A DNA stretch of 46,105 bases from Thermodesulfobacteriota bacterium (GTDB lineage Bacteria; Desulfobacterota_D; UBA1144; Nemesobacterales; JAJCZQ01). The position numbers and the translations under genes are program-made. The stretch lies in the NCBI GenBank assembly GCA_965203965.1, contig CBDBDR010000012.1, positions 1-46,105 on the forward strand, in the 5' to 3' direction. Every line of letters starts with the position of its first letter. Positions within the stretch are counted from its first letter, which is position 1. Shown here piece by piece: positions 1 to 43,399 of the stretch. A model generated the notes under the pieces. That model had not been told where the DNA came from and searched no databases. It saw only the letters and a program-made list of their open reading frames with translations.

Positions 1-3917
<3,917 letters not shown>

Positions 3918-13345: not shown

Positions 13346-13891
13346 TTATATTTTGTGTTTGACTTTATCTTCTGGTGCAAGAGGGTTCTCTCCCTTATAA
13401 AACTGCTGTAACAGAGCAATCGCTTCGTCTTCCATAACTCCTGAGGTTATGCGAAGAGGTGGAAGAGGTAGTCTTTCCACTCTGCTATCTGTTTGTGGTG
13501 GATAGAGTTCTATGGTAGCTGCTTGAAGTACTGACCCACAGCCTCCAAATCTGCCATTGCTGCAGCCAAAGATAACTCTAGTCAGTCCAACAGATCTCAG
13601 TGCATAAGTGCACATCACACAGGGCTCAACTGTGACGTAGAGTGTGCATCTGGAACACATGTCTCTCAGATCAACTCCCTTCTTCTTGCTAAGCTCTACA
13701 AGATGGTCAATGATGATCATCTCGGCATGTCTGGTCGCGTTCCTGGTTGCATTCACCTGATTGCAGCCCCTGGCTATGATAGTGGAGCCATCTTCGTCCA
13801 CCACCACGCACCCAACTGGTACTTCTCTCTGGGTGAGTGCTTGCTCCGCCATGCTAAACGCATCTCTCATCAGTTGAGCATTAGTCGTCAT
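13346..13891 (-). CDS. ADAT2: tRNA-specific adenosine deaminase 2 (A34-to-I), intronless
   Basis: EVPVGCVVV, NATRHAE, LYVTVEPCVMC (HxE...PCxxC zinc motif), FGCSNGRFGGCGSV, FYKGENPLAP; first ATG at 13891. Confidence 0.95.
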   Translation of the reverse strand: MTTNAQLMRDAFSMAEQALTQREVPVGCVVVDEDGSTIIARGCNQVNATRNATRHAEMIIIDHLVELSKKKGVDLRDMCSRCTLYVTVEPCVMCTYALRSVGLTRVIFGCSNGRFGGCGSVLQAATIELYPPQTDSRVERLPLPPLRITSGVMEDEAIALLQQFYKGENPLAPEDKVKHKI

Positions 13892-14130
13892 CTTTGAAGT
13901 GGGAAGCCACGCACGTGTCGTCACCCTTTATTCAGCGTGGTCCGGCCGGCCATTATTCAACGCTATGGCGCAGGCTTGCGCTGCGGGATAAGCCTCAAAC
14001 GAAAAGTTAGTGGATGGCTGCGCATTTGCTGTGATTGGCTGGAGAACGCATCTAGCTAGCAGAGCAGCAAAGCACACGTGGTGTTGTGTCTGTTATCATC
14101 CTGTTGTCCTGGTGCATCTACAAGCAAGGT
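13892..14130. promoter_or_regulatory. Putative bidirectional promoter / non-coding first exon between ADAT2 and the collagen locus
   Basis: CpG-rich stretch between divergent genes, GATTGG (reverse CCAAT) near 14033, CACGTG boxes, possible donor CAAG|GTATCG near 14129. Confidence 0.45.
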
Positions 14131-14342
14131 ATCGTTTGTACTGCCACCATGTGTTACTCGTATAAGATAAACTAGCCTTGTGTTTTGTTTTGACTGCAGT
14201 ATAATAGTGTATTATGCATCTAAGTATACTGAATGTGCAGCCACGTTATTTTTCCATGCAGTGACAGAGTCTGTAACTACTGGTAGTTGTTAACTGGTGC
14301 AGCATTGCAACTAGCTAGCCAGCCACAGAGCTCCAGCTAGCG

Positions 14343-17300
14343 ATGGCTAGTAGCAGCAGCAGCAAGGCACTTGTTGCATCTCTTCTTCTTCTCTCTCATC
14401 AACTCCATATTGCATCCACTTCAGCTATAGGTGAGCTCATTGTCTGCATTATAAGCTAGAGAGTCTGATTTTGAGTGATGTGGGACAGCCTCAAAGGATC
14501 AGTAAATTAGAAAAACTATTGTGGTTTACTATGTGTGGATTGGATAGTGTCACAAAAACATCTGTTCCCACTTGTGTTGGTGATCCTAGCTTTGCCAATT
14601 GAAGCCATTAGGTAGCTATTACCACCTTCATTAAGGCACTGTGGTCTGTGTTTTCTCACAGTGGATATCCTCAGCACAACTGGAGTATCAACCAGTCTCA
14701 CATCTGAGAATGGAACTTTTACGCTAACTATGGACTTCACAGGCGCAACAAGTTCTTCAGCGTGGAGCAACATCAGCAGTCAATTTTCATCTGAGTTTGG
14801 GTTCTTTGCTCACACAGTTCTTGGCGCAGGCCCACGCAATATATTCTCGACTAATTCACCAGATCCGTTTGTAGTATCAATCACAAGTGACAATAGACTG
14901 CAAGTAGACTTGCCTGGAGTTGCTCCTCAACTCTTTGATATTCCCACCGACAATATGCTTCATCGATTGGGTGTTTTTACCAGAAACGGTCAAGATTTGA
15001 TAGTATCTGTAGACTGCAGAGAAGGACAGACACAGCGGTTACCATCCACAATAGGCACTCTAGCAGTAGGAGATACAATAAATGCTGTTGTAGCAGGTCC
15101 CTCAATGGTGAGAGCATCACTGGTAATGTAGAATCTGTCACTTTTTCTCGATTTGCTTCAGGTTAATGAAATGTTACTGAGCGGCGATGCAGCAGTTGCA
15201 CTCCGTAGCTGTGCAGTAAGTACTACACTAGTTATAACTACAGTAACTCAATGTTGTTACGTATATATAGATAATTCAAGGTCCAAAAGGAGAAAGGGTA
15301 CATTGTCTCTTATTTCACCACAAAATTATTACGGACACATTTTATGATAGGGTATGAAAGGTGAATTAGGTGATGCAGGAGCGAGAGGACGTCCTGGAAA
15401 AGATGTAGGCATTCCCTCTCATGTAGTGATGTCTATTTTATTTTTCTTTGTTTTGCAGGGTGTAGATGGGCCTCCTGGCACAGCAGGTGATCCTGGTCTA
15501 CCAGGAATTAATGGTACAGTTGGACGACAAGGACCACCAGTGAGCAACTTGAGTGTGAAGATGAAGAATTGAGACATTAAATTTTTTTGTATAGGGAGAA
15601 AAAGGAATGATTGGTAATTCCGGTCCAGCTGGACCTAATGGAACAATTGGACCAGAGGTGGGAATAGTGTTTTACTAAACTTTCTTACATTACTGGATTG
15701 TCAATAGGGTCCCATTGGGCCCCCAGGGCCTCCTGGTGAGGATGGTACTCAAGGAAGAAAGGGTCCCCCAGGACCACCTGTGAGTGAACCAGTCGGTATG
15801 TTGCTGTCACTCTATAGCATGTGTAGGGTACTAACGGTCTGCCTGGTGCCCCTGGTACCAATGGTACTGATGGACAGAGAGGACCTCCTGGGGCACAGGT
15901 AAGTGACATTAGGTTACACACACTGACTACATTATGAGTCACGGCAGGGTGAACAAGGTGAACAAGGGATGAAGGGTGACTCTGGACGAGCAGGAAAGCC
16001 TGTATGTCACAACGCATGACAACATGGTACGCAGTGTTTGATTGTATTGTATTCTAATGCAGGGAACTGATGGAGAGAAGGGTGAAGTGGGTCCTCCAGG
16101 ACTTCAAGGTGAACAGGGAGAACAAGGCATACAGGTAAGTGATCATTGCTTATCTTGCTCTACTGAATACCATGGTAGGGCGAAGCTGGCCCACCTGGAC
16201 AAAATGGAATGAATGGAACAGATGGTGAGAAAGGAGAGCCTGGTGCTCGAGGACCGCAAGGAGTAAATGGAACAAAAGGAGAGATGGGTGACACTGGACC
16301 TCAGGGTAGTCAAGGAAGAAAAGGACTCCCTGGGCCTCCAGGAATGCAAGGACCAGATGGAATGAAGGGTGATCAAGGACCCAATGGGACAGCTGTGAGT
16401 GCTGTGGTCTGATTGCAGGTGCCCTAGTATGAAGGTCTTCTTTCCAACCAAGGGTCCCATGGGAGAGAAGGGAGAACCAGGTGCCACTGGGCCACAAGGT
16501 ATAGATGGTCCACAAGGAATGGAGGTATGTGTGATCATTTCTCTGGTCTGAGCTGTATTTTATTTGTTTCATTTTCAGGGTGAGAAAGGCCAAAGAGGAG
16601 AGATGGGTCTTTCTGGAGTACCAGGTGTCAATGGATCTGCTGGTGAACCGGTAAGAATACTAGCGGTCTGTGTCAATGGTGATAGCGTTATTGTGTTATT
16701 CCAGGGAATGAGAGGAGAGAAAGGCGAAAAAGGAATGCTAGGAGCAGCTGGTCCTCCTGGATTAAATGTAGTTTGTCTCTCTCTCTGAGTGCATGAATGC
16801 TGTATGATGTTGCTGCAGGGTACAGAGGGTCCCCAAGGACCAGCTGGAAATGATGGTCAAGATGGTGCTGATGGAATGAATGGTGCAATAGTAAGTGTTG
16901 TGAGAGCATTTCTTGCTGTGTTGTTACCGTACATGCACCAGGGTCCACCAGGAGACCGCGGAGAGAAAGGAGACGAAGGTCCTCAAGGCCGTAAAGGATT
17001 CCCTGTCAGTAATTCTGCATAGCTTGCACATTGCTTATTGTTGTTGCTATAGGGTGATAGAGGTATTGATGGTGAGAAAGGCGCTACTGGTGAAAATGGT
17101 AGTCCAGGAGTGCCTGGTCGCAATGTGAGTATCTGGGCGTGTATTGTCTCTGTGCTATCAGCTTGGTGTGTATACAGTAGTAACATTCCATTCATAGCAC
17201 GCATAGCGAGACTGTCTTGAGGTTAAAACCACAATTATTGTAGGGCACTGATGGTAGTGATGGTTTACAGGGAGAGAGAGGAGAACCAGGAAAAGATGGT

Positions 17301-20300
17301 TTGAATGGTACAGCAGGTCCACCGGTTAGTTGGCTCATTTTAGTATCATCAGTCATTCACTTTATGGTTGGTAGGGTTTGCCAGGTGATATGGGGCTCGT
17401 TGGTCCGGTGGGTATGAATGGAACGACGGGTCCTCGAGGACGCACTGGAAAACCAGTGAGTTAGATCGTAGTGCCCATCACATGCAGTGTCTTGCTGGTT
17501 GCTGCAGGGACCATCTGGTATGAAAGGAGAACCTGGGTTGAATGGAACAGCTGGAGAGAGAGGAGAACCAGGAAAAGAGGTGCTTAGTTTGTGAAGTGTG
17601 TCTAGTGTTTGTGGTTTACTGATGTTTTACAGGGTTTAAGAGGACCTCCCGGTCTGAATGGAACACAAGGAATGATGGGAGAGAAGGGAATGAATGTATG
17701 TGTGAACCATGTTGCTATGGCTACAAAGAGTTTATTTGGTTGCCTAGGGAAGTGTTGGTCCATCTGGAGAAAAAGGAGATCAAGGCATGCCAGGCTCACC
17801 AGGAAGCGATGTAATGCATTTGTGATGTTGTTTACAGTGATAGCATAGGTCTTTGATGTTGTGTATAGGGTGATCCAGGTGTGCAAGGTAGAGCTGGCAA
17901 GCCTGGTCCTATGGGGCCTTCTGGGCAGAAGGTAGGATGGTACATCATTCTACCACAATATCCTACTGTTTGTATTAGGGTGAGAATGGTACTGCAGGAG
18001 AAATGGGTACTCCAGGAGCCACAGGCCAACCAGGACCAATGGTGCATTGTGCTATTGTCCCCAATAATGTATGATTATCATGTTACTAACTGCAGGGCAT
18101 GCAAGGTGATCCTGGTGTCCCTGGAAGAAACGGTACACCAGGTCAAATGGGACCGCCTGGAAAGATGGTAATTTTTGACTGCAAATATAACTTCTAGCTT
18201 ATTTACTGTGTTGTGCAGGGTGATGCTGGACCTCCTGGACGTAATGGTTCTGATGGAGCTCCTGGACCACGTGGAGAACCAGGGAAAATGGTTTGCAACA
18301 AGGATATTACTGAGATCATCATGAGAGTGCTGTATGTAGGGAAACCCTGGATTGAATGGAACCGCTGGACCACCTGGAATGGCTGGCCCTCCCGGAACAA
18401 ATGTGAGTAGTAATAGCACTTTGATCAGATCTATCATAACTTCCATTTGTAGGGCAGAAAAGGTCCTCCTGGGCCCATTGGTTTAAAGGGAAATCAAGGA
18501 GATGCAGGTCCTCCTGGTTTTAATGTGAGAACTAATGTAAAAACTGACTCTTATCCACTGCACTGTTTCACAGGGAACTGAAGGCCCTGTAGGACCAGCT
18601 GGACCAAAGGTACTTATCGAAATCACTTCTCTAATACACATCGATTATATTATTTTTGCCCAGGGTTGTCTAGGATTTAATGGTAGTCAAGGTGAACCTG
18701 GTCAGCCAGGACAAAGAGGTCCTCCCGGTGACTTGGTTAGTCTGATTAGTTGTCTCTAATTATGACTTGATTATGTGTTAATTACAGGGTCCAGTAGGAC
18801 CGGCAGGGCCTCCAGGCACTCCGGGAGGACAAGGAAATTCTTCTGGAAATGGAGAAAAGGTGGTTGAGCATAGTGTGTCGACATGTTTTACATATTTTGT
18901 GCTGCAGGGAATGAAAGGAGATGTAGGTAGCAGAGGTCTGCCTGGTAAATCAGGACAACCAGGTATTCCTGGTCAGAGAGGACTGCCAGGAAAACCAGGA
19001 GAGTCTGGTGAAGCGGGAATACCAGGATCAACTGGTTTGTGGTATGAGTGATGTCACTATTGTAGTGCTGTGAACTGCAGGAATACCTGGTAAGATGGGA
19101 GCTGCAGGAGAACCAGGACAGAGAGGGCTGCCTGGAAAAATGGGTCCATCAGGAAGCAGAGGAGTACCAGGAAAGAATGGTGCTCCTGGTTCCGATGGAG
19201 AGAAAGGAGACACTGGAATGGATGTATGCAGTAGTGTGTATCATGGGATATACTGTCACTAATATGCTGCTAATACAGGGTGAACCTGGTAGCAGAGGGC
19301 TTCCTGGGAAACGAGGCATACCTGGAATGGCTGGTTTACCTGGAAAAACAGGTATGGATGGGTTGCCTGGAGCCAGGGGTCTACCGGGAAAGAACGGTGA
19401 ACCTGGAACTAATGGAAGGGCTGGTCTACCTGGAAAAACTGGTGAAACGGGTCAATCTGGTGTTCCTGGCAAAACTGGTTTACCTGGCATACCTGGAAGA
19501 GCAGGACTACCTGGCAAAGGTGTGTGATGAGTACTACAGCAACTCGTTGTACTACAGGCAATTTCTTTCTCAACAGATGGGCCGCCAGGAGGGGATGGTC
19601 CACCAGGTCCTCCAGGCCCTAATGGTACCAAAGGTGATGCTGGCCCTATAGGACCGGAGGGTCCACCAGGAAGAGCTGGACTTCCTGGTAAAATGGGAAC
19701 AAATGGTTCACCAGGTGCAGACGGACAACCAGGCAGCCCAGGATTAAGAGGATCCACAGGAAAACCAGGACTACCAGTGAGCAAGAATTACAAATTAGTT
19801 TTAGTGATCTATATGACTTGATTGTTACAGGGTGATGCTGGTATGAAAGGAAATGATGGTGCACCTGGACCACCTGGAGATGTCATAGGGGTACCTGGTC
19901 TGCCTGGCCCACTTGGTGATACTGGACGCAAGGGTCCACCAGGATTCCAGGGTCAACCAGGAATGCCGGGAGATCCAGGTGTTCCTGGCGTGAGAGGGCC
20001 TAAGGGAGACACTGGAAATGAGGGTAGGTTTACAGGCTGCAGCAAGCGTTTAATAATACTGTTGGTGTGTTTAGGACCAAAGGGTTCCATTGGAAACAAT
20101 GGTACTGCAGGCCCAATGGGATTAAAGGGAAGCAAAGGAGATCCCGGAGGAGAGAAGGGACAGAAAGGAGAGCTTGGCTTACCAGGTTTGTAGGAGAGCT
20201 AATTTTACTCCAGTAATAATTGTGATGATATTCTTAGGACCGAGAGGAGAAATGGGAAATCCTGGACTGAACGGCACTGAAGGAATGCAAGGGGAAAGTG

Positions 20301-20634
20301 GTGAAAAGGGAGATCGAGGTCCAATGGGCAGAAAGGGACAAATGGGTGAAGAAGGTGAAAAAGGAAGTAGCGGTGAAAAGGGAGACACAGGTGCTGATGG
20401 CATGAAGGGAAATGTGGGAGATACTGGAGGCAATGCAGTGGTAGGCAATCCATGTAGAATCGTAGTGAAGTGTGCGCTTGATACGTCATTACTCTTCAGG
20501 TTGTGGACACGTTCGATGAATTACCAAATAATGCAAGTGACGGGCAGTTGGGCTTTGTTGTATCCGATCAGCAGCTTCATGTGTACTTTGGTCCCAGAGG
20601 ATGGCTTAGTGTCAGCCAGAACTGCACATCTGAT
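14343..20634 (+). CDS. Collagen module A: signal peptide, TSPN/LamG-like domain, interrupted Gly-X-Y domain, collagen XV/XVIII-like trimerisation motif
   Basis: Exon 14343-14430 ([18 protein letters not shown]..) then exon from 14662 ([32 protein letters not shown]-like), then dozens of small Gly-X-Y exons with ~50-bp introns (15271-20440), then exon 20500-20634 [38 protein letters not shown]. The 3' end is ambiguous: read-through stop at 20641-20643, terminal exon 20677-20796, or splicing to 21240. Confidence 0.9.
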
Positions 20635-21239
20635 GTAAGCTAGTGGTTTGTTTCGTGTATCATTTCATCTCTTCAGTGTCAGTCCAAGCAGTTTAGTCAA
20701 ATTCGAGATAGTTTCGCATCCATTTTTGATTATAATTTATTATTATTATTGAAAGTAAAATTAAACATTAACTGTATTTCTTGTTTGCTGTGTTGAAGAA
20801 ATTAATATTAATTTTTATCACTGATTAACCGCATTATGAATCCACATCAAAGCAATTTCAATAGACGCCAGACGTGATAACAAGCTTGCGAGGGGCGTTA
20901 CTGTAGCCAGCACCAGTCTCGCCTACCAGGCGTATGCCGAATTGCTCGAGAGAAAGTGTTTCACAACTTTTGTATCACCGGTTGATAAAGAAAACATTGA
21001 CTTGCAGCGGTTCCGATGCCTTTGCTGCATTCAGCTGGCAGCCTTCAACGACCAGCTTGTTTTTTTCAATGCGTCATCGCTGCGTCGTTCTCTGTCGATC
21101 GATGCTTGCCGATCTATGGCTAGCCTCCGTTTTTTTTTTAAACAAAGCTATTTGGAAACGCACAGATAACTAAACTGTGAGAACTAACACTGTTCATGTT
21201 CAACATTTAATTTTCAATTTTTACTTTTGTTCTTTGTAG

Positions 21240-24200
21240 GACAATGACACTTACCTCGAGGGACTCTGCGGCTGTCCAGTAAGTTCAGAGAAGAATCGTT
21301 GTTGTTAGTTTTTCACACAATAATGTATTCTCGCGCTTGCATATGCTACTAAAGTAGATACACGTGCTACAGTTATTTTAGTAGGTATCATATTACGTAC
21401 TGTAACGTCACAAAATATGCGCAGTGGTCATGTCAATGACTGATTCCCAAGTACATATGGTTAAGATATATAGCTGTGCTGTGGTTTTCTCGCTGTTACA
21501 ATAATTTTTATAAATTTTAGGGTTTATTAGCTGTAGTTTGCATTTGCATTTGCAAAAGTGTAATGTTTTAGATCACATCGACAACTGCGACCATGACCAG
21601 CTCAACGCTCATCACACCAGTGGTATCATCAACAATTCTACCGCCTACCAATATGTCATCAACACCATTTCAATCATTCACAATGGTGTTCTCATCAACT
21701 CCTATGATCCCATCGTCCACAATGGTGTTCTCATCAACTCCTATGATCCCATCGTCCACAATGGTGTTCTCATCAACTCCTATGATCCCATCGTCCACAA
21801 TGGTGTTCTCATCAACTCCTATAATCCCATCGTCCACAATGGTGTTCTCGTCAACCCCTGTGGTCCCATCGTCCACAATGGTATCTTCAACTCCTGTGAT
21901 CCCATCGTCCACAATGGTATCTTCAACTCCTATGATCCCATCGTCCACAATGGTGTTCTCATCAACTCTTATGATCCCATCGTCCACAATGGTGTTCTCA
22001 TCAACTCCTATAATCCCATCGTCCACAATGGTGTTCTCGTCAACTCCTGTGATCCCATCGTCCACAATGGTATCTTCAACTCCTATGATCCCATCGTCCA
22101 CAATGGTGTTCTCATCAACTCCTATGATCCCATCGTCCACAATGGTGTTCTCATCAACTCCTATGATCCCATCGTCCACAATGGTGTTCTCATCAACTCC
22201 TATGATCCCATCGTCCACAATGGTATCATCAACTCCTATGATCCCATCGTCCACAATGGTATCATCAACTCCTATGATCCCATCATCAACAATGGTATCA
22301 TCAACTCCTATGATCCCATCGTCCACAATGGTATCATCAACTCCTATGATCCCATCGTCCACAATGGTATCATCAACTCCTATGATCCCATCGTCCACAA
22401 TGATATCATCAACTCCTATGATCCCATCGTCCACAATGGTATCATCAACTCCTATAATCCCATCGTCCACAATGGTGTCGTCAACTAGTACTGTAGTCCT
22501 ATCACCATCACTCGTGTTCACCCCAACACCTATAGTAGGTTGCTTATGTCATTGTGATCTTAGTTGTGACCGTGAGCTTGGAGGGGTTGGAGGGTATCAT
22601 GATAGAGCTAGCCAAGGGGTAGTTGCTTTTTAGACTGATAACTGATAACTTAGTCGAATGGAACTGAATTGGTAACTGATTTTAAATTACAAAAAGAAGA
22701 CTATTTATAGTAAATAGAAGTTTCTAGAAGTAGAATGATCAAGAAGTGTCAAGTAAGGTCTATAAAATATAAGAACAGGTTTAAAAATGCGGAAAATCCC
22801 AGGGGCTACAGGTATTATTTGGGGGACTAAGGTTGATGGTGAGTTTGGTATACATCCCTAGAGTTATAAAATAGATGATAGCATTGTTCTGAGGTAGCTT
22901 TTGGGTTTTATCAGTAAAAGAATGACTGATGTGTGCTGGTTGCAATCTATCCAGTGCAGTACAGCGGTTCTTATACTAAAGCACAAACCATAGACCATAA
23001 TATTTCAGTATTATGATTGTCAGATGTGGGGTCAATTATAATAGAAAGTCATAACAGTAGTAATTATTTCTACTTGATTACTACGTTTACTGAGATACTA
23101 CTCATCTAGGGAATGTTTGCATTCATATTGGTCTAAATATTATGCTAAACAACCATTCTATTGCTATACTACTCATTTTGATGACTAAAAATTAATAATA
23201 CAAAATGGAAGTTTGCCTGTTGTTCGCATAGTTTGTGTCTATTACTATATAAGATGACTCTCTACAGTTTATTGCAAAAACTGTTGTACCAACTGTTCTT
23301 TAGCTTACCTTTTTACAATTTTTCATCCTCAGCTAACTGGACCAGTCACCTCTCTGGTCTATTACCTGCCTATTGGTCATCCTTTGACTTACTAGCATTA
23401 TAGTCCTTTCATATCGGCATGCGTTAATTAAATCTCATCTTTTAAAACATAGAACATACAGGTGGTGTCTGCATGAGATCAATAATAATTAGTCACTATA
23501 TTGAGAAGGAATGAGCATAGATACTATCTAGTTTAGGAGAAAGCTAGGTACAGAATGCTCCTGCTAGGTACCATTCCTTGTTCAAATCAAAAAACTTATT
23601 CTCAAAAAACTTATTCTGATTTCCTTAATGCAGGTCTATAGTCTTTACTTTGCTTTAGTTGCAAAAACACTTGATATTGTCTCATCCAATGTATGGCTCT
23701 GTATACATCTATACCAGTATGTAGCAGCAGGTTTCTTATACCATCTTCTCTGGGTTTTAGTTCCCCACAAGGAACATTCATGTCCTTATCTTGCTATGAC
23801 ATGTCAAGGGCATCTGCCTTCAGAGCAGATCACTACAGTATTAGTATAGCTTTCTGCGGTAATCTTACTACATGTATAAGTAGTTTCATTGCTTGATAAT
23901 CAGAATCATTGTTGTGAATATGATTAGAGGAGCATGCATGAATTTAATTCTGATTCTAGATGTGTAGGGCTTCTAAAAATTAACCTTAGTCCCTCCAGAT
24001 GATACCGCCAGCCAACATTTTGCCCCCAAGCTCACGGTCTACAATTACTGATATTTCAAAAGTACGGAAAACAGTGGCTGCAATGTTTTTGAGATTATTT
24101 TTTTTCTGACATAGCCACGTCCTGAGCTAATACCAGGACTACCAGGAGAAAAGGTAATTCATAGTAATGATAGTTGTACTATTAGTATTATCATGTTGCA

Positions 24201-27200
24201 ACAAAGGGCTGGAAAGGTGAAGTAGGTCTTCCTGGTCGGACTGGTTTTCCAGGAATACAGGTTTGTTATCAATGATAATTATTTTTCTCATGCTCATTTG
24301 TTTTTGATGATCAAAGAACACTGTTGCCGGTCCTAAAGGTGAACAGGGTCTACCAGGAAGAGATGGTACTCCTGGTGACCAGGGAGAGCCTGGAAAACAG
24401 GTAACATGAGTTGCTTCTAGTCTACACTATAATTTTGAACCATTCTTCTCAGGGTACGAAAGGTATGCCTGGATCAGGTGTTGGACCACCAGGACCTAGA
24501 GGGTTGCCAGGACCACCAGTGAGTATGAGACAGCTTGCTGATGATGGTGTACTAGTGTCTTGCTATAGGGCCCAGCTGGTAGTGAGCCAGGAGTACCTGG
24601 TCGTGTTGGGCCAGTAGGTGAGAGAGGTCCACCAGGACAACAAGTGAGTTGAACATGGCAGCATATTGTTGACATGCTTGATTTGTTCGTTGATGATTGT
24701 CAGGGAAATCCAGGGACACCAGGATTACCTGGTATTGATGGCTTCCCCGGAGAGATAGGAAAAATTGGTACAGAGGTATTAGTCTCAAAATTTACTATAG
24801 ATCATTTTAGTCATGTTTTGCAACAGGGAATTCCTGGCATAAAGGGTGAAAAGGGCTCTGATGGGCGCATGGGCAAACCAGTGAGATTGAAACTGACTCT
24901 TATTTGAAAAGTATTACTACTTGCGTCTAGGGATTGACTGGAATGAGAGGAGCTCCTGGTATGAATGGAATCAAAGGAGCTAATGGAACCGAAGGAAACA
25001 TGGTACAGCAGACCAGCCATTGTATCAATGTACTATTGTTGTGGTGTACAGGGCATACCTGGACCAAGTGGGGCCCCTGGTAGCAATGGTGTTAGAGGTG
25101 AAACAGGAGAGCACGGAAGAAAGGGAATCCCAGGACATAATGGAATGAAAGGAGAGACTGGAGAGAGAGGAGCTGATGGACCAAATGGAAGGAGAGGTCT
25201 TCCTGGAGTTAAAGGTATCAAGGGTAATGATGGACTTGATGGCATGCAAGGATTTGCTGGACCACAGGTAAGCTTGTCTTATGTTAGTCCAAACTTTGAA
25301 CATTTATGAGAAACTGCTTAACAGGGACCTAAAGGAGAAGATGGTCAAAATGGAAGAAAAGGAAAACCAGGCAACGATGGAGCAAAGGGAGTGAATGTGA
25401 GTCTGCTGTAAGATGAGATTATGAATTTTTTAAAACACAAAAAGGGTGAAAAAGGCAACGAAGGAGTCTCTGGTCAGCCAGGTAGAGCAGGTATACCTGG
25501 AATAAATGGAGCTAAGGTAGTGTGTACTGCATACAGTATCATATGGTACTGTGCTGTTAGGGAGCCGATGGTATGGCGGGAGACAAGGGAACGATGGGAG
25601 AGAGAGGTCCAGCTGGAGTTATGGTACAGCGTCAACTAGTGATCATGACTACTGATTATGCTGTGCTTCACAGGGAGGGCGTGGTCAACCAGGACTACCT
25701 GGACGAGATGGAAGGAACGGCACTGACGGAGTCTCAGGAAGAAAGGTGCTATACTGTGATGGTGCACAGTTTGAATTTGTGTCTAAATGTGCAGGGTCCA
25801 CCTGGTTTCAAAGGTCAGGTAGGGGACAGAGGCAGGAGAGGAACAAATGGGAAACCTGTAAGTTGAAGATATTGCTCATAACTAGTGGTTAACAATCTTA
25901 CAGGGAATCCCAGGAATTGATGGTATGATAGGTGATGATGGAGAAGCGGGAGATGATGGACCACCAGGAAGCAATGTAAGCTGGACCGTGTGTCATCCAT
26001 GACAGCTGCATGCACTGTCACTGGCTCGTAGGGAATTCCTGGTACTGATGGAACACCGGGCGTAACAGGAGAACCTGGAAATCAAGGGATGCCCGGTGAA
26101 CGCGGACCTAAGGTGATCAATTAGCGTCTTTTAAACAATAAATTATTTGTACTCATAGGGAGATACAGGTGATCGTGGACCAGCAGGAAACGCTGGTGCT
26201 GATGGTCCAGTAGGAAGGAGAGGGGAGCCTGGACAATCAGTTAGTACACTATGACAGTCTCTAGTGATGCTGTGGTGGTGTGTGTGATGTAGGGTCAAAA
26301 AGGAATTCCAGGAGATCCCGGTATTGATGGCATTGATGGACGAACTGGATTTCCAGGAGGAAGGGTATGTTAGTAGATGCAGCTATACCAGTTGAGTGTG
26401 TTGTGCTTGCTGCAGGGTCCACAAGGATTCCCAGGTGCTGATGGTGCCAAAGGAATGAGAGGAGACACGGGAGATATTGTAATTAGACGTCTAAACTGTT
26501 ACGTAGTATAGCGAATATTGCTTGTGCATGCATATAGGGTGGAACTGGAGAAAAAGGAATGATGGGAGATCGTGGTATGAATGGATCACAAGGCATGCCT
26601 GTAAGTGTTGTCTATTGATGATGTAATTATTCACTGTTCTACTAATACTCGCTAAGGGTGCAAACGGAAGAGATGGAAGAATGGGAAAGCCAGGAATACC
26701 TGGATTGAATGGTGAAAAGGTAAGCTGAAGGACGATTTTAAAGTCCTACTGCATTTTTTTGCTCAATGAAGGGCTCTCCTGGGCCCAGGGGTCAGATGGG
26801 TTTTGAAGGAGAAGAAGGGAAGATTGGAATCAAGGTACGTACAGCTAGTTGCATCGATTGATAGTGAGGTCTGTTCTGCTGACTAGGGTGTGATGGGCAT
26901 GCCAGGACCACCTGGTGTAGATGGCTATCCTGGTAGAACAGGTGTACCAGGAATGAAGGCAAGTCACTACTACAGTAGAGGCATGTGATCAGCACATGCA
27001 CACTGCAGGGAATGGCTGGTCCAGCAGGAGCACCTGGTCGACAAGGATTGAAAGGAAGAACAGGATTCCCTGGCAGCAGGAGCACCTGGTCGACAAGGAT
27101 TGAAAGGAAGAACAGGATTCCCTGGCGGTGATGTTAGCTTAATCATAGATATATTATCCATGTTTATTACACACTTCTCACACACAGGGACCTCCTGGTC

Positions 27201-29646
27201 AGCCGGGCATTATGGGACCACCTGGTGACAGAGGTAGTAGAGGTGCTCAGGTATAATGTAATAAAGCAAGCAGCCAAAGCCATTGTAATTACATCATTGT
27301 ACAGGGCGGTATGGGTATACCTGGCATCCGTGGACCTCCTGGAGACGTGGGCCCACCGGGAGAAGTTGGAAATAGAGTACGTATGAACAGCGGCTTCTGA
27401 AATAAGTGTTTGATTTTCATTTGACAATTAGGGTCCGATTGGGCCTCTGGGAGTTAAGGGTGAAATGGTATGGTAATTAACCGCACAGGTTTATTAGTCT
27501 TATAATTTCTTAACAGGGTGAAGTAGGTCTGCAGGGCCCTCTTGGTCCACAAGGAGATATAGGAGAACAAGGAAAGAATGTATGATGGCAGTGATATTAT
27601 CACAAAGTGTTGAAATTGGTTTCTTGCTGTAGGGCAACAGAGGGCCTCCAGGTGGTTTTGGGCTGCCAGGTCCTCCAGGCCCGCCCGGGATAAAGGGAAG
27701 CAAGGTCTGTGAGTGGTTCGTGTGTAGCGTGTTACTGTGTGTACTCTGGTAAAGGGAGAAAATGGTGATCCTGGTCAAAGAGGAAGAAGCGGATTCCCAG
27801 GACCTGATGGAGAACCAGGAACTAAGGGACGAACTGGTGTAAACGGAGAGAAGGGTGAAAGAGGGCTACAAGGAGGACCGGGTAAGCAGTTGAGGATTTT
27901 AGAATCTCCGCTATGAATCGAGGTTCACTGTATAGGTGAACAAGGCAAGGATGGAATTCCTGGTGTCAATGGAAGCATCGGAGATCTAGGCCCAGATGGA
28001 CCTCCTGGAGTTAAGGGCAGGAGCGGACGACCAGGATCGGATGGTATCAAAGGAGCTAAAGGAGTAGTTGGTGACAAGGTATGCGTTTAACTACTCTTCC
28101 ATGTAATCTTTGTTCCTCAACTCAGGGTAGCCAAGGATTGTCTGGTGAAGAAGGCAAGCTAGGGGAACCAGGCACTCCAGGAGAGCCAGGAATGAATGGA
28201 ACTGATGGAGTACCAGGTGTAAAGGGTCGTGTTGGTTTCCCTGGTTTACCAGGACCAAAGGGAAGGCGTGGTAGAATGGGCAAGAATGGAACTAAAGGAG
28301 CCATAGGAGAACCTGGAAAGATGGGTCTACGAGGACCCAAGGGGACTCGAGGAAAACCAGGAAGAGGTGAACTCTGAGACAACTAGCAAACTGACATTCA
28401 TGCGTTTCTTTATAGATGGAATAAGTATTGACGGAGATCCTGGACAACCAGGTGTGGCTGGTATCAAAGGAGAAGCAGGAGATGTGGGTCCTGTTGGTCC
28501 GATGGGCATACCTGGAGACGAGGGCAAACCAGGAATTAATGGTACAGACGGAGTTCCAGGCCGGAACGGAACTCCAGCATTGAAGGGAAGAACAGGAAAA
28601 CCAGGATCACCAGTCAGTTGTGGTAGTGTGCATGAATTATTGACTAACTCATGATAAAGGGAATACCCGGAGTGAAGGGAGAACTAGGAGATCTAGGACG
28701 ACCAGGAATGACCATTGGTGAGAAGGAGCTAGAACAACATTCTGTGTCTCTATAATATTTTTACACTTCACAGCTGTTGTGGGACCACTGGGAGAGAAAG
28801 GACTGCCTGGTCCAATGGGAATACGTGGTCCTTTGGGAGTGCCTGGTAGTGAGAAGGGAAGGCGTGGACAGCATGGTGAATCAGGAGAGAAAGGGACACA
28901 TGGTCAACCAGGTTAGCATGCTCCATGACACCACACACGTGCCCTATGCTCAACAATATAGGTCAACCTGGTGAAAGAGGATTTGATGGTCCAGACGGCC
29001 CCCCTGGCCCTGTTGGGGATCCTGGAGGCATGATACCAGGAGATCCCGGTGAACCTGGAGAGTTCGGTATGGTGGAAAGCTCTGTAGACTTAAATGATTA
29101 ACTATCTGTTGCTGCAGGTCGAAAGGGTCCACCTGGAAGAAATGGGATCAATGGAGAGAAGGGAGAACCTGGTGAAGAACCAGTAAACGGTGATCGGGGT
29201 AGGGTTGGGTGGCCGGGAATGAAAGGAGCCAAGGGAATCGTCGGAGACAAAGGAGATAGAGGTAACCTTGGAAACAAAGGAATGCAAGGAGATAATGGTC
29301 GCACAAGCAATGTACCGGTAAGTGACACCAAGAACTCTGATCCATCTGCCTCTGATCTATCTGTTTGTAGTGCGTGTGCTCTCAAGGAGATCTTGAGCAA
29401 CCCCAGAACAATACTACAGGTGTCATCAGACTGGTTGCCAGAGAGAAGTCTCTCTATGTCTACACCAGGCAGCTGGGGTGGGTTAAGGTACTCAACAACG
29501 GAAGGACAAGCCAGCGAAAAAGACGATCCACAAAACAACAACAATTTGACAATGGCGGAATAAACAGAAACACATCCACGAAAGAGTCTAACAGAGAAAT
29601 AGTCGCACGAGATTCTGTCAAAAGATCTAATCAGCAGCTGCTATAA
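21240..29646 (+). CDS. Collagen module B: CGCP micro-exon, mucin-like exon, Gly-X-Y domain, second trimerisation motif (continuation of module A or a tandem paralogue)
   Basis: Phase-0 exons 21240-21278 ([13 protein letters not shown]), 21572-22534 (S/T/P/M repeat), 24115-24153 ([13 protein letters not shown]), many Gly-X-Y exons to 29317, final exon 29371-29646 [35 protein letters not shown]. No convincing start codon or signal peptide of its own. One exon is frameshifted (27022-27125). The Gly-X-Y exons are better supported than the two upstream exons. Confidence 0.8.
21680..22487 (+). repeat. 39/36-bp minisatellite, probably coding ([12 protein letters not shown][F])n, ~21 units
   Basis: Unit TCATCAACTCCTATGATCCCATCGTCCACAATGGT(GTTC/A); unit lengths differ by exactly one codon; flanked by a phase-0 acceptor (21571) and donor (22535). 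Confidence 0.9.
22561..24047. mobile_element. Degraded ~1.5-kb TIR DNA-transposon derivative in the collagen intron
   Basis: Left end TAGTTGTGACCGTGAGCTTGG pairs with right end CCAAGCTCACGGTCTACAATTA; subterminal GGGACTAAGGTT (~22823) pairs with AACCTTAGTCCC (~23982); AT-rich interior with no long ORF. Confidence 0.65.
27022..27125 (+). repeat. Perfect 52-bp tandem duplication inside a collagen exon
   Basis: CAGCAGGAGCACCTGGTCGACAAGGATTGAAAGGAAGAACAGGATTCCCTGG at 27022-27073 and 27074-27125. Confidence 0.95.
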
Positions 29647-29791
29647 CGCGCCAACAAACTCACTCTACAGTGCGATGGCTGCAAAAAAACTATAAAATTA
29701 TAAAAATTCAGTTTTTTTTTAGATCTGTGAGATTCAATGTTAGTAGTGATACTTAGCTATGAGCTGTAATAAAATTATTGACTGTTTAGAA

Positions 29792-40527
<10,736 letters not shown>

Positions 40528-40878: not shown

Positions 40879-43044
40879 CTAGTTCATTTTTGTTAAATTC
40901 ATGTAGACATTTTCGATAACATGTTCAGGCTTCCTAAAAAAACGACTTGGCTGCAATGTACCAAAGCCACGATCATTGCTGTGAGTGCCACCGTTAGTGC
41001 TTATCTCACGTAGAAGCTCCTTCATGACCCAGTGGTTGTGAAACCTTTCTGCTAGAGCAGGGTCACACTTCTTTTTGAGGCATTGCAAGATCAAGCAGAT
41101 AAGACCGGCTACAGCTGGGGCAGCATAAGAAGTACCATTTGCACATGTTGCTTGATCAGCATACTTCAAGTTATTAGCTGCTCCAAGTATATTTTCTCCA
41201 GGAGCCAAAAAATCTAAGTGTTGTCCAACAGGCGAAAAAGGTGAAGACTTTCCATGCATATTGTGAGAGCCAATGCACAGTACATTACCGAGACGTGCTG
41301 GGTAGCAAATAGGGGTTTGAAGTTGGTGACCTGTATTACAAGCAGCACATACTATGATGACTCCAGCACAAATTAAGTCAGAAATAGCTTTGGCAATTGG
41401 TTCTGAATAGTAAGGACTACCAAATGACATTGATACGACATCAACCCTGATCTCTGATGAAGGATCACTATTTCTGTTTTTGATGTCAACCAAGGCGTCA
41501 ATAACTGCTAGATCTGAGTATTCGTTGTCACCGTCCCGTTTTACTTTGTACACCAACAGCTTAGTATCAGGAGCAACACCTGAAGAGACTAGAACTTCTT
41601 TACTACCTGATACACTAGGATTTTCAGAAGCTGTAAAACTATTCCCACAAACTATACTGGCGCACATTGTACCATGGCCATCGGTGTCTGTGTAATCAGG
41701 AGCTTTGTTAAGGACTTTGCCAGCACTACGAAAAGCTATGTGCGAATCATCTAAGCCAGTATCCAGAATAGCTACTACAGTTCCCTCCCCTTTACATGAT
41801 TCATGAATAGACTTGAGGTTCCAATATTCATACGCAGTGAATTTATAGTTAACCTCTTGTAGAACCAAAGGGAATCCATCGTTAGTGAATGACTTTATAT
41901 CACTATTTTTTTCCAGTGTGTCCAATGATCTCTTCTTCATTCCCAATTTTTTCTTTTTGGGTGATCTTTTCTTCTTTTGGCTAGTTTCCTTGCTTTTTGA
42001 GGCCCCTTTCTTGCTTGGTCCAGATAATTTTAATTTAAAGATCTTGACTAATGGAGGCTTTTCCATAGTGCTCGAGCATTTTTCTGACGTCTCTTCTTGG
42101 AGAGTCTTCCAGCGTGCTTTTCCTAGTTCATTGCGTAAATTGCCAAACGTATTCAAAGGGTCAGTGAAGCAAATCTTGGGTGCATTAAAGAGAATAATAG
42201 CACCAACAGCATTTGGTACACAAGCAGCTATAGAATCTATACTCGACGCTCTGATTGGGACTTCAATACAATCTATACTGATACCCTGAGAGAGGCTGTG
42301 AGACAGAATATCAGCCAAGTTACTGATATCGACTACTGCAAAAAGAACTTTGTCAACCTTCTTCACACCTTGTTTGACCAACTCTTCTGTTGAACAAGTC
42401 AGTATCTGCTTAAGTAAATAGCTATTGTTTCCAAGCTCATTTGAATAGTTATCAGGCAGACGTAGATCTATCAGGCTCAGTTCTGGTTTCAAGGTTAGAG
42501 ATTTCATTTTTTCTCGAAGTATTGGTACAAGAGTACTAATAAGCTCATCTGGTTTATTACGAGAAGATTCCGCTACTTTGGCAGGAAGATACTCGGATAG
42601 CAGAAACTTTGGTTTAGCTTTACGTCCACGTTGCTTAGCTTGGATGGGAGCTTCTACATAGCTTTCAGAAACAGCACTACAACTAGCAGCATCATTATCA
42701 TCCTCAGATGATTCAGATGATTCTGATGGCTCTACACTAAGTTCTACTCTGGATTGCTTGGAGGCTGATGTGAAGCTATTTTCTGGATCCTTAGGACGCT
42801 TTTGTAGCAAAGAATCATTTTTACTCACTAGTGCATCTCTAGGGCTGGTTTGGTCAGTTGGTTGAGTAGCTAAAAGATCGGTACTAGCAGATTCCCTTTC
42901 ATCTTGTTCTTGTGAAGCATACCTCTCAGGAACAGAAAGTTCTTCAGCATCTTTATCTTGGAAATCTTCACATTCGTTAGATCCTGGGATATTAACCACT
43001 TGTGTTGGTTCATGTTGTTCATCAGTCACAGTATCATCAGCCAT
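40879..43044 (-). CDS. Subtilisin-family (S8) serine peptidase with long acidic N-terminal extension, CDS intronless, 721 aa
   Basis: Catalytic motifs in S8 order: VAILDTG (Asp), DGHGTMCAS (His), VVSMSFG, CAACN (oxyanion Asn), DFLAPG, NGTSYAAPAVAG (Ser). No signal peptide. Confidence 0.93.
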   Translation of the reverse strand: MADDTVTDEQHEPTQVVNIPGSNECEDFQDKDAEELSVPERYASQEQDERESASTDLLATQPTDQTSPRDALVSKNDSLLQKRPKDPENSFTSASKQSRVELSVEPSESSESSEDDNDAASCSAVSESYVEAPIQAKQRGRKAKPKFLLSEYLPAKVAESSRNKPDELISTLVPILREKMKSLTLKPELSLIDLRLPDNYSNELGNNSYLLKQILTCSTEELVKQGVKKVDKVLFAVVDISNLADILSHSLSQGISIDCIEVPIRASSIDSIAACVPNAVGAIILFNAPKICFTDPLNTFGNLRNELGKARWKTLQEETSEKCSSTMEKPPLVKIFKLKLSGPSKKGASKSKETSQKKKRSPKKKKLGMKKRSLDTLEKNSDIKSFTNDGFPLVLQEVNYKFTAYEYWNLKSIHESCKGEGTVVAILDTGLDDSHIAFRSAGKVLNKAPDYTDTDGHGTMCASIVCGNSFTASENPSVSGSKEVLVSSGVAPDTKLLVYKVKRDGDNEYSDLAVIDALVDIKNRNSDPSSEIRVDVVSMSFGSPYYSEPIAKAISDLICAGVIIVCAACNTGHQLQTPICYPARLGNVLCIGSHNMHGKSSPFSPVGQHLDFLAPGENILGAANNLKYADQATCANGTSYAAPAVAGLICLILQCLKKKCDPALAERFHNHWVMKELLREISTNGGTHSNDRGFGTLQPSRFFRKPEHVIENVYMNLTKMN

Positions 43045-43399
43045 TATTTCTAAAGAGATTTGTAAAGATTGAAGTCATAATACACAACACAGCTACTAGT
43101 TTGTAATGTCTGTTTACAAAAACCTGAGTGGTTGCTAGCGATCATGTACATTTTACCATGCTTGAATTTTGTGTTATTTAAGGGACTACATGTCGAACTA
43201 GAGAAACGGCTCAATTTGCAATTGCGTGCTGTTTTTTCTGGCTCACCATCTAGTACTCTACAGTGACTTTACAAACTGCTGTGCGGTCCTAGGGTGAAGC
43301 TAGAGGGCTGAGGGACCCAAATGTTTTACGACATAGTTTTTTCATTTTAAAGTAGCAACCAGGGTGGGTGGGTGGGAGGGCAAGCAGAGCGGGGCACCT

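Follow-up and report, generated by a model that had tools for sequence, protein, structure and literature searches.

A candidate collagen transcription unit, probably from a sponge, with a tandemly duplicated gene body and predicted short and long mRNAs

The stretch of DNA analyzed here, referred to as the window, is the 46,105-nucleotide contig CBDBDR010000012.1 of an assembly deposited under the name of a Thermodesulfobacteriota bacterium (GCA_965203965.1). On its plus strand lie two runs of collagen-coding exons, module A (14343-20644) and module B (23999/24115-29646), and on balance we favor the reading that they form one collagen transcription unit, which arose by an old tandem duplication of the gene body and gives rise to both short and long mRNAs. 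Module A is a complete collagen gene with a product of 1339 amino acids, and its exon structure was verified by RNA contigs. Module B copies module A exon for exon, from the third coding exon of A onward. An earlier reading of the same sequence (the original prediction) had proposed two triple-helical domains in a single giant chain. The two domains were borne out by runs of Gly-X-Y exons at 15351-20440 and 24207-29317 on the plus strand and by matches to the Pfam Collagen family (PF01391) in both of the exons tested (19279-19518 in A, E = 8.4e-21; 28126-28365 in B, E = 2.5e-19). The coordinates of all features are collected in Table 1.

The RNA and DNA evidence consisted of Logan contigs, which are unstranded graph walks, placed on the window; 15 of 85 joints between contig pieces were listed. 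Runs X1, X3, and X4, all of which come from one study, were treated as RNA because GT..AG joints are present in them that the DNA run X5 lacks, and run type was otherwise guessed. Introns of about 50 nucleotides (nt) with GT..AG ends (median, about 52 nt in both A and B) were spliced out in RNA contigs and retained in X5. Since dozens of short exons are separated by GT..AG introns that are removed in the RNA contigs and present in the DNA run, the region 13993-29646 is clearly spliced animal DNA; the collagen gene itself is probably that of a sponge. Exon models were obtained by phase-aware chaining of Gly-X-Y blocks, followed by correction by eye, and the sums of the model exons equaled the coordinates of X4 record 6 (9735 nt) exactly in 4/4 intervals (548, 1629, 1622, and 699 nt). 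Regions without cover were not used as evidence for the run concerned, namely, bin 20911-21457 in X1 and X3 (the bin of the 39-nt exon described below and of any first exon of B), 20635-20817 in X4, and 23099-23645 in all three RNA runs. Contig depths, such as 42.2 and 14.4 in X1, were not taken as a basis for ranking the two modules. The assembly in which this intron-rich animal contig sits comprises 1.99 Mb in 17 contigs and was scored as a prokaryote that is 99.48% complete and 0.07% contaminated; marker-based completeness checks are blind to animal contamination of such a bacterial bin.

The A chain consists of a signal peptide, a 148-residue N-terminal domain, a 1091-residue helix, and a 45-residue C-terminal domain. 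Its transcript begins at about 13977-13993, and an Illumina adapter adjoins position 13993 in X4. The helix occupies residues 200-1290 and has three breaks of 1 to 3 residues, with runs of 227, 86, 24, and 25 triplets. Nearly all of the Gly-X-Y blocks in both modules have AG before them, GT after them, and an unbroken Gly codon at their start. Of the 36 exons of A between 15351 and 20634, 29 are multiples of 9 nt, and most begin with GGN after an AG. Asn-x-Ser/Thr sequons, mostly in the form G-x-N-G-T, are unusually frequent in the helix; the A chain has 30 of them and the A-B chain 42. The chain ends 13 residues after a GW motif.

As originally predicted, module A ends at a phase-0 donor (GAT/GTAAGC, after 20634), and this donor was used in one RNA run (X4). 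An A-only mRNA was found in two of the three RNA runs (X1 and X3), in which the donor between 20634 and 20635 is unused and the frame reads Val-Ser-stop. The protein of a relative, P0001, also ends in ...DVS, like the read-through form of A. A short form had been attributed to an alternative terminal exon at 20677-20796. This proposal did not hold: from 20499 to 20817 the X1 contig follows the DNA without a break, so that the short form comes about when 20634 is left unspliced. Close to this donor, position 20631 is T in the window but C in all four runs, DNA and RNA alike, a synonymous difference (TCT to TCC).

Comparison of the two modules indicated that B is a headless copy of A. When the exons of A from its 54-nt exon were paired with those of B from 23999, 26/34 were identical in size and the other 8 differed by 3 to 12 nt; toward the 3' end, the sizes in A and B were 193 versus 58 + 138, 111 versus 105, and 203 versus 200 nt. 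The two proteins are 48% identical, and identity at non-Gly positions is 24%, versus 7-13% in shifted registers. The C-terminal domains (C-domains) of A and B are homologous (34% identity over 35 residues; tblastn E = 3e-4 within the window). In B, the longest run of triplets reaches 260, with about nine breaks of 1 to 4 residues. No second copy of the N-terminal domain was found in the window. The exon-for-exon duplication begins exactly after the N-terminal domain of A, which fits a copy that never had a promoter. The original prediction that B lacks a signal peptide of its own also stood, in that none of the 90 ATGs between 20645 and 24207 gave a convincing in-phase signal peptide, the weak candidates being 21016 and 21593.

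Sequences from relatives pointed to an old duplication. The last exon of B is related to P0006 (83% identity) and P0007 (58% identity), in both of which CVCSQ, the core, the basic site, and the ...QQLL end are kept. The basic R-x-K/R-R site after the C-domain of B (29500-29515) is present in 3/3 B-type sequences (RKRR, RRRR, and RKRR), which suggests furin-type removal of the 45-residue tail. An A-type end likewise exists in a relative, P0001 being 82% identical to the A C-domain. Since A-type and B-type ends both occur in relatives, these sequences indicate that the duplication predates the relatives, i.e., that it is old, and that B has stayed coding.

In the window itself, the B frame is broken by an exact 52-bp tandem duplication, with which translation of B would end at residue 608 of 1206. 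Neither an X5 DNA contig, which skips 52 nt (27021->27074), nor the RNA contigs of 3/3 runs, which have a single-copy 72-nt exon, contain the duplication; moreover, the 1622-nt interval fits only when the duplication is counted once. Counted in this way, the B frame is open for 1188 codons across 39 exons. The duplication is probably an assembly artifact or a rare allele, and from the X5 contig and the three RNA runs, module B is intact; the original prediction had likewise set the duplication aside. Downstream, RNA contigs run from the last exon of B through 29919 to 30176 and beyond, fusing B with a convergent neighbor. This minus-strand gene (29792-31228), in which TPR-like repeats were recognized by eye, overlaps the 3' untranslated region (UTR) of module B.

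The evidence that A is joined to B came from X4 record 6, a contig from one of the three RNA runs in which both A (13993-19517) and B (25051-29919) are represented. Its piece that follows joint 20439->20499 has a length of 136 nt, which places the end of the piece at 20634, the very position of the predicted donor. From there to the 216-nt exon of B, record 6 holds 618 nt (206 codons), a multiple of three, so that the two modules share one reading frame regardless of the exons that lie between them. Subtraction of the eight upstream exons of B (516 nt) leaves 102 nt, which equals 39 + 63, and the linker in this contig is most likely composed of exons 21240-21278 and 23999-24061. The 39-nt exon, which has strong splice sites (a pyrimidine tract and GTAAGT), had been placed in the chain by the original prediction, and the X4 depth of 4.69 in bin 20911-21457 fits it exactly, corresponding to 39 nt of the depth-65.7 contig. 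The 63-nt exon is separated from 24115 by a 53-nt intron, and no other open AG..GT exon of this length occurs in the bins covered by X4; the X4 depth in bin 23646-24192 was 11.8, versus the 11.77 expected for 63 + 35 nt. Another 63-nt stretch, 21537-21599, was rejected as an exon, having stops, a GC donor, and an overlap with the start of the mucin-like exon; the X4 bin depth of 7.55 there would also equal 63 nt. With the linker of 39 + 63 nt, the A-B frame is open for 2559 codons.

A second possible linker includes the mucin-like exon. The three candidate exons originally proposed to follow A (21240-21278, 21572-22534, and 24115-24153) are indeed flanked by AG and GT, open, and in phase 0. 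The mucin-like exon encodes 48% Ser plus Thr (63% with Pro) and no charged residues; its product may be O-glycosylated. It is a minisatellite of about 20 to 21 units of 39 or 36 nt (12 to 13 residues), all multiples of three. The exon is open in three frames, so openness says little, but it is the frame rich in Ser, Thr, and Pro that matches the phase of the flanking exons. No homologue of this exon passed among 8000 scored protein candidates. In two of the three RNA runs, the B contig (record 2 in X1, record 5 in X3) includes an additional 86 nt on the upstream side of 24115. In a simulated de Bruijn graph (k = 31) of the mucin-like exon joined to 24115, the unitig across the 22534/24115 junction started at 22449 and also kept 86 nt. 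The agreement between the observed and simulated lengths provides good indirect evidence that the mucin-like exon is spliced to 24115 in X1 and X3, whose B contigs must break inside the repeat. With the 52-bp duplication removed, the frame is open for 2859 codons in the order A, 39-nt exon, mucin-like exon, and B and for 2880 codons when the 63-nt exon is included as well. The only contig that bridges A and B fits 102 nt and thus skips the 963-nt mucin-like exon.

The intron between the mucin-like exon and the 63-nt exon contains an 897-bp stretch that is a polymorphic, highly repeated intronic element. The DNA depth in bin 23099-23645 was 23194, compared to about 330-630 elsewhere. The ends of the skipped segment are GC..GT, which indicated that it is not an intron, and a search for terminal repeats found none.

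Several points weigh against a joined A-B transcript. Joints 20634->21240, 21278->23999, 24061->24115, and 22534->24115 are not among the 15 of 85 joints listed, and they follow from the arithmetic of coordinates and depths. The junction 21278->21572 is supported nowhere in the listed joints, so that the exact chain of A, 39-nt exon, mucin-like exon, and B is putative. The bridging contig was obtained from a single run of one study; it also runs into the convergent neighbor beyond 29919, which shows that overlapping transcripts are merged in these assemblies, and a contig that spans two genes does not establish a single RNA molecule. A B-only mRNA could start upstream of 21593, where there is a weak hydrophobic stretch, or in a first exon with ATG 21016. 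Family and fold searches with the C-domain found nothing, and its trimerization is a prediction; the evidence is at the level of nucleic acids. The original claim of a single spliced A-B chain was therefore upheld in part: one X4 contig fits it, in frame over 2559 codons, but an A-only mRNA exists too, and the mucin-like exon is skipped in that contig. Likewise, the proposed mucin linker is joined to 24115 in X1 and X3, as indicated by the 86 nt, but its connection to A is missing from the bridging contig and from the listed joints.

These observations were weighed against three other explanations. A and B could be two tandem genes, B having the mucin-like exon as its N terminus, a promoter of its own at about 20820-21590, and a start at ATG 21593 or in an exon with ATG 21016, with the A-B contig representing minor read-through. 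This explanation appears unlikely, although it carries appreciable weight: the X1 contig is A-only and unspliced to 20817, X1 and X3 have separate B contigs, and read-through chimeras between tandem genes are common. In addition, translation from ATG 21016 yields MPLLHSAGSLQRPACFFQCVIAASFS, which includes a hydrophobic core, and a phase-0 GT lies between 21093 and 21094; ATG 21593 opens the mucin frame. However, both starts are poor, since the donor at 21093 is weak (TCT/GTCGAT) and the peptide from 21593 is without a clear hydrophobic core. Nor would two genes readily explain a 102-nt linker that is in frame and free of stops, for which the chance was estimated at about 1 in 15 (1/3 for the frame times about 0.2 for 34 stop-free codons), or a 39-nt exon with strong sites that is entered from the donor of A in X4. 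The point at which the duplication starts, exactly after the N-terminal domain, is likewise what is expected of a copy that never had a promoter.

It is improbable that the bridging contig is an assembly artifact or that B is a transcribed, untranslated relic, such that only the 1339-residue A chain is real. In favor of this view, Logan contigs represent graph walks without strand information, the X4 contig also connects B to a neighbor on the opposite strand, and B carries the frame-breaking 52-bp duplication in the window. Yet an artifact would not be expected to end exactly at a GT donor with a spacing that accommodates one exon of 39 nt and one of 63 nt, both flanked by AG/GT, and a relic is difficult to reconcile with the absence of the duplication from the X5 contig and 3/3 RNA runs, with an open frame of 1188 codons, and with a last exon that is conserved, tail included, at 83% and 58%. 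Least of all do we expect an obligate giant chain that always contains the mucin linker, with A alone produced only through a terminal exon at 20677-20796. All linker exons are in phase 0, the 2859-codon frame is open, and the mucin-like exon is transcribed and joined to 24115, as such a chain would require; but the X1 and X3 contigs continue past 20634 into the stop at 20642-20644 without being spliced to 20677, and the sole A-B contig has room for 102 nt, not 39 + 963.

In the single transcription unit that we favor, a partial tandem duplication would have produced a promoter-less second body, B, copied from the third coding exon of A to the C-domain. The promoter, signal peptide, and N-terminal globular domain would be present once, before A, and B would be expressed by splicing from a donor three codons before the stop of A. 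When there is no splice at 20634, Val-Ser would be added before the stop at 20642-20644, and the mRNA would end near 20780-20817, giving the 1339-residue chain. When 20634 is spliced, it would be joined to the 39-nt Cys-Gly-Cys exon, then to the 63-nt or the mucin-like exon, and then to B, in frame, for a product of 2559-2880 residues; here the long mRNA is presumed to be one molecule and to be translated. Position and conservation suggest that each 35- to 45-residue, beta-rich C-domain may nucleate the preceding helix, that the Cys-x-Cys motifs (LCGCP after the A domain and PCVCS before that of B) may lock the trimer by disulfides, and that RKRR after the B domain may be a furin-type cleavage site. 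In the predicted product, a hinge, either short or O-glycosylated, would connect two rods, each about 310 nm long. More tentatively, and at somewhat less than even confidence, we propose for the protein a single secreted chain of 2559-2880 residues with two helices of about 310 nm, each with its own nucleation domain, in which splicing selects a 34-residue Cys-Gly-Cys hinge or a 334-residue O-glycosylated hinge and in which the internal stop and poly(A) site yield a single rod.

The identities of the noncollagenous domains were addressed by family, structure, and embedding searches. A scan with hidden Markov models, which had been suggested as a check, found collagen but no match to a LamG/TSPN or trimerization family. 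For the N-terminal domain, relatives at 69% and 58% identity were the only two true matches among 1.84 billion representatives; P0004 and P0005 were dropped as repeat proteins matched through low complexity. The label TSPN given to this domain was not confirmed, as the 148-residue exon matched no Pfam family at E <= 1. In the ESM Atlas, the best 10/10 family-bearing matches fell in the Laminin-G/ConA-like clan, with Laminin_G_3 at the top (0.96), which we regard as a lead only. The AF2 model of the domain (pLDDT 45.6) was too poor for a fold search.

The description of the C-domains as multiplexin-type trimerizers found no support either. No match was obtained by Pfam hmmscan of the C-domains, PF20010 (multiplexin trimerization) had no match in a six-frame scan of the window at E <= 10 or in hmmscan, and searches against the PDB with single sequences and with profiles returned no relevant match. 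The AF2 model of the B C-domain (pLDDT 61) gave a best Foldseek E value of 0.9, to an unrelated chain, and no VIA-align hit at Z >= 2; it predicts a three-stranded meander at residues 20-40, with a pLDDT of about 84 in the conserved core. The predicted complex of three copies of the A C-domain scored 0.11. The top ESM Atlas matches of the A C-domain were unnamed clusters (0.88), and a "phage tail-like trimerization" cluster (0.87) is a lead only. In the protein search with this domain, one of two candidates was the genomic open reading frame (ORF) of a relative, and no transcript-derived full-length protein was found. Four loci from a contig scan (L001, L002, L006, and L007) were judged spurious, being matches of 15-28 residues in bacterial or unknown contigs. 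The C-domain motif may resemble multiplexin NC1. Endostatin (PF06482) had no six-frame match at E <= 10; the A chain stops 13 residues past the GW motif, and B has an unrelated 45-residue tail. The fibrillar C-propeptide COLFI (PF01410) had no six-frame match at E <= 10 in the assembly of the window, although the control genomes, being prokaryotic, could not serve to validate this search. In its exon design, the gene looks like a fibrillar-type helix gene, combined with a Laminin-G-like head and a small unclassified C-domain.

Among known collagens, the multiplexins (vertebrate XV/XVIII, Drosophila Multiplexin, and Nematostella XVIII-like) have a similar layout, with an N-terminal Laminin-G/TSPN-type domain (here a lead only), a collagenous region, and a short noncollagenous domain after the helix. 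A mucin-like insertion has been reported in one Laminin-G/TSPN collagen, the collagen XVIII-like protein of Nematostella (PMC12549020). In contrast to multiplexins, the protein described here has no endostatin, no PF20010 match, and no PDB sequence or fold match; its A helix is nearly uninterrupted (3 small breaks in 1091 residues), and two modules of helix plus C-domain follow one another. The term multiplexin thus serves as a loose analogy of layout. Clade B fibrillar collagens (V/XI and the B-clade collagens of sponges and sea anemones) are alike in having a TSPN-type N-terminal domain (again a lead only here) and a nearly uninterrupted helix of >1000 residues. In both cases, exons open with a complete Gly codon, close with a complete Y codon, and vary in 9-nt steps (54, 63, 72, and 81), a design that has been described for fibrillar collagen genes (PMC2852846). 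Unlike clade B fibrillar collagens, the protein has a 45-residue domain in place of COLFI and no minor-helix and telopeptide layout, and its second module is without parallel there.

Membrane collagens XIII/XXIII/XXV have two oligomerization sites per chain, which allows independent folding of their collagenous domains. The A-B product is likewise presumed to have several helix-nucleating sites per chain, although XIII/XXIII/XXV are type II membrane proteins with coiled coils and short collagenous domains, whereas the A-B product would be a secreted chain with two full-length rods and small beta-rich domains. At the transcript level, conjoined transcripts and genes with internal poly(A) sites similarly use a choice between stopping and splicing onward to obtain short and long products from one promoter. 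The locus differs from conjoined transcripts in that its downstream unit seems to lack a promoter and start, its linker exons keep the frame, and its downstream unit is conserved; the long form looks like a designed isoform rather than noise. A narrow literature search found no collagen with two modules of helix plus C-domain in one chain, and we know of no collagen type with two complete helix-plus-trimerizer modules in a single chain.

Table 1. Positions in the window of the features of modules A and B and of the region between them
Feature	Position	Strand	Basis
5' untranslated first exon	13993..14128	+	RNA pieces 13977/13993-14126 joined to 14260 by GT..AG in 3/3 RNA runs; joint absent in X5
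Exon with start codon (ATG 14343) and signal peptide, ending in phase 1	14262..14430	+	Joint 14428->14660 (cut +2), 3/3 RNA runs
N-terminal noncollagenous domain (148 residues), beta-rich, possibly Laminin-G/ConA-like	14662..15107	+	RNA piece 14660-15106
Two small exons (15162-15215 and 15271-15297) linking N-terminal domain to helix	15162..15297	+	Joints 15106->15161, 15215->15271, and 15296->15350 in 3/3 RNA runs
Module A triple-helical region, 35 exons	15351..20440	+	Exon model; sums of 548 + 1629 nt fit the X4 contig
A C-terminal noncollagenous domain (45 residues, VVDTFDEL...), presumed helix nucleating/trimerizing	20500..20634	+	Joint 20439->20499, 3/3 RNA runs; X4 piece ends at 20634
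Read-through end of short mRNA: GTA AGC, TAG 20642-20644, 3' UTR, ATTAAA 20760-20765	20635..20817	+	X1 contig colinear 20499-20817; X3 contig, 20499-20694
Linker exon (39 nt), phase 0, Cys-Gly-Cys motif	21240..21278	+	AG/GTAAGT sites; X4 bin depth
Mucin-like exon, 321 residues (963 nt), SSTMV(F)SSTPMIP units	21572..22534	+	TRF period 39 x 21.3; RNA depth in both bins, 3/3 RNA runs
Multicopy insertion (897 bp) in intron, outside the protein	22964..23860	.	One X5 DNA contig skips 22963->23861
Exon of 63 nt, putative linker in the A-B contig, positional counterpart of the 54-nt exon of A	23999..24061	+	X4 bin depth; arithmetic
Module B triple-helical region, 37 exons, ~1086 residues, ~9 imperfections	24115..29317	+	Exon model; sums of 1622 + 699 nt fit the X4 contig
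Exact 52-bp tandem duplication in a B exon, frameshifts the window only	27022..27125	+	TRF, 2.0 copies, 100%
Last exon of B: Cys-Val-Cys, C-terminal domain, RKRR basic site, 45-residue tail, stop TAA; AATAAA at 29768-29773	29371..29646	+	RNA piece 29370-29919, 3/3 RNA runs

Other parts of the window contain several further features. Upstream of the collagen gene, a single-exon ORF on the minus strand (13346-13927) has a cytidine/adenosine-deaminase zinc motif (HAE...PCxxC, ADAT2/TadA-like, by eye). It lies head to head with the collagen start at 13977-13993, and a bidirectional promoter may be common to both. A long acidic (GDSSD/E)n repeat at 2207-3064 has several open frames on both strands and a GC skew of 0.64. 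Also on the minus strand are two intronless ORFs, one for a 664-residue protein that by eye is a multipass membrane protein (36231-38225) and one of 731 residues (40879-43074) whose C-terminal half appears, again by eye, to be subtilisin-like.

Folding of collagen helices starts at a nucleation domain, and to our knowledge all collagen types have one such domain per folding unit. If the preferred reading is correct, a chain with an optional second rod-plus-nucleator module, expressed from one promoter, would represent a new means of constructing matrix molecules that form bridges or networks, and it would offer a natural test of whether two long helices can fold independently in one chain. Trimers could then be single rods, double rods, or mixed, such that one locus would set the cross-linking geometry of the sponge matrix. 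The locus would also exemplify how a promoter-less partial duplication can retain its function once a splice donor at the very end of the upstream copy has been recruited. Finally, the replacement of the fibrillar C-propeptide by an unclassified C-domain on a fibrillar-looking gene would bear on the diversification of collagens in early animals.

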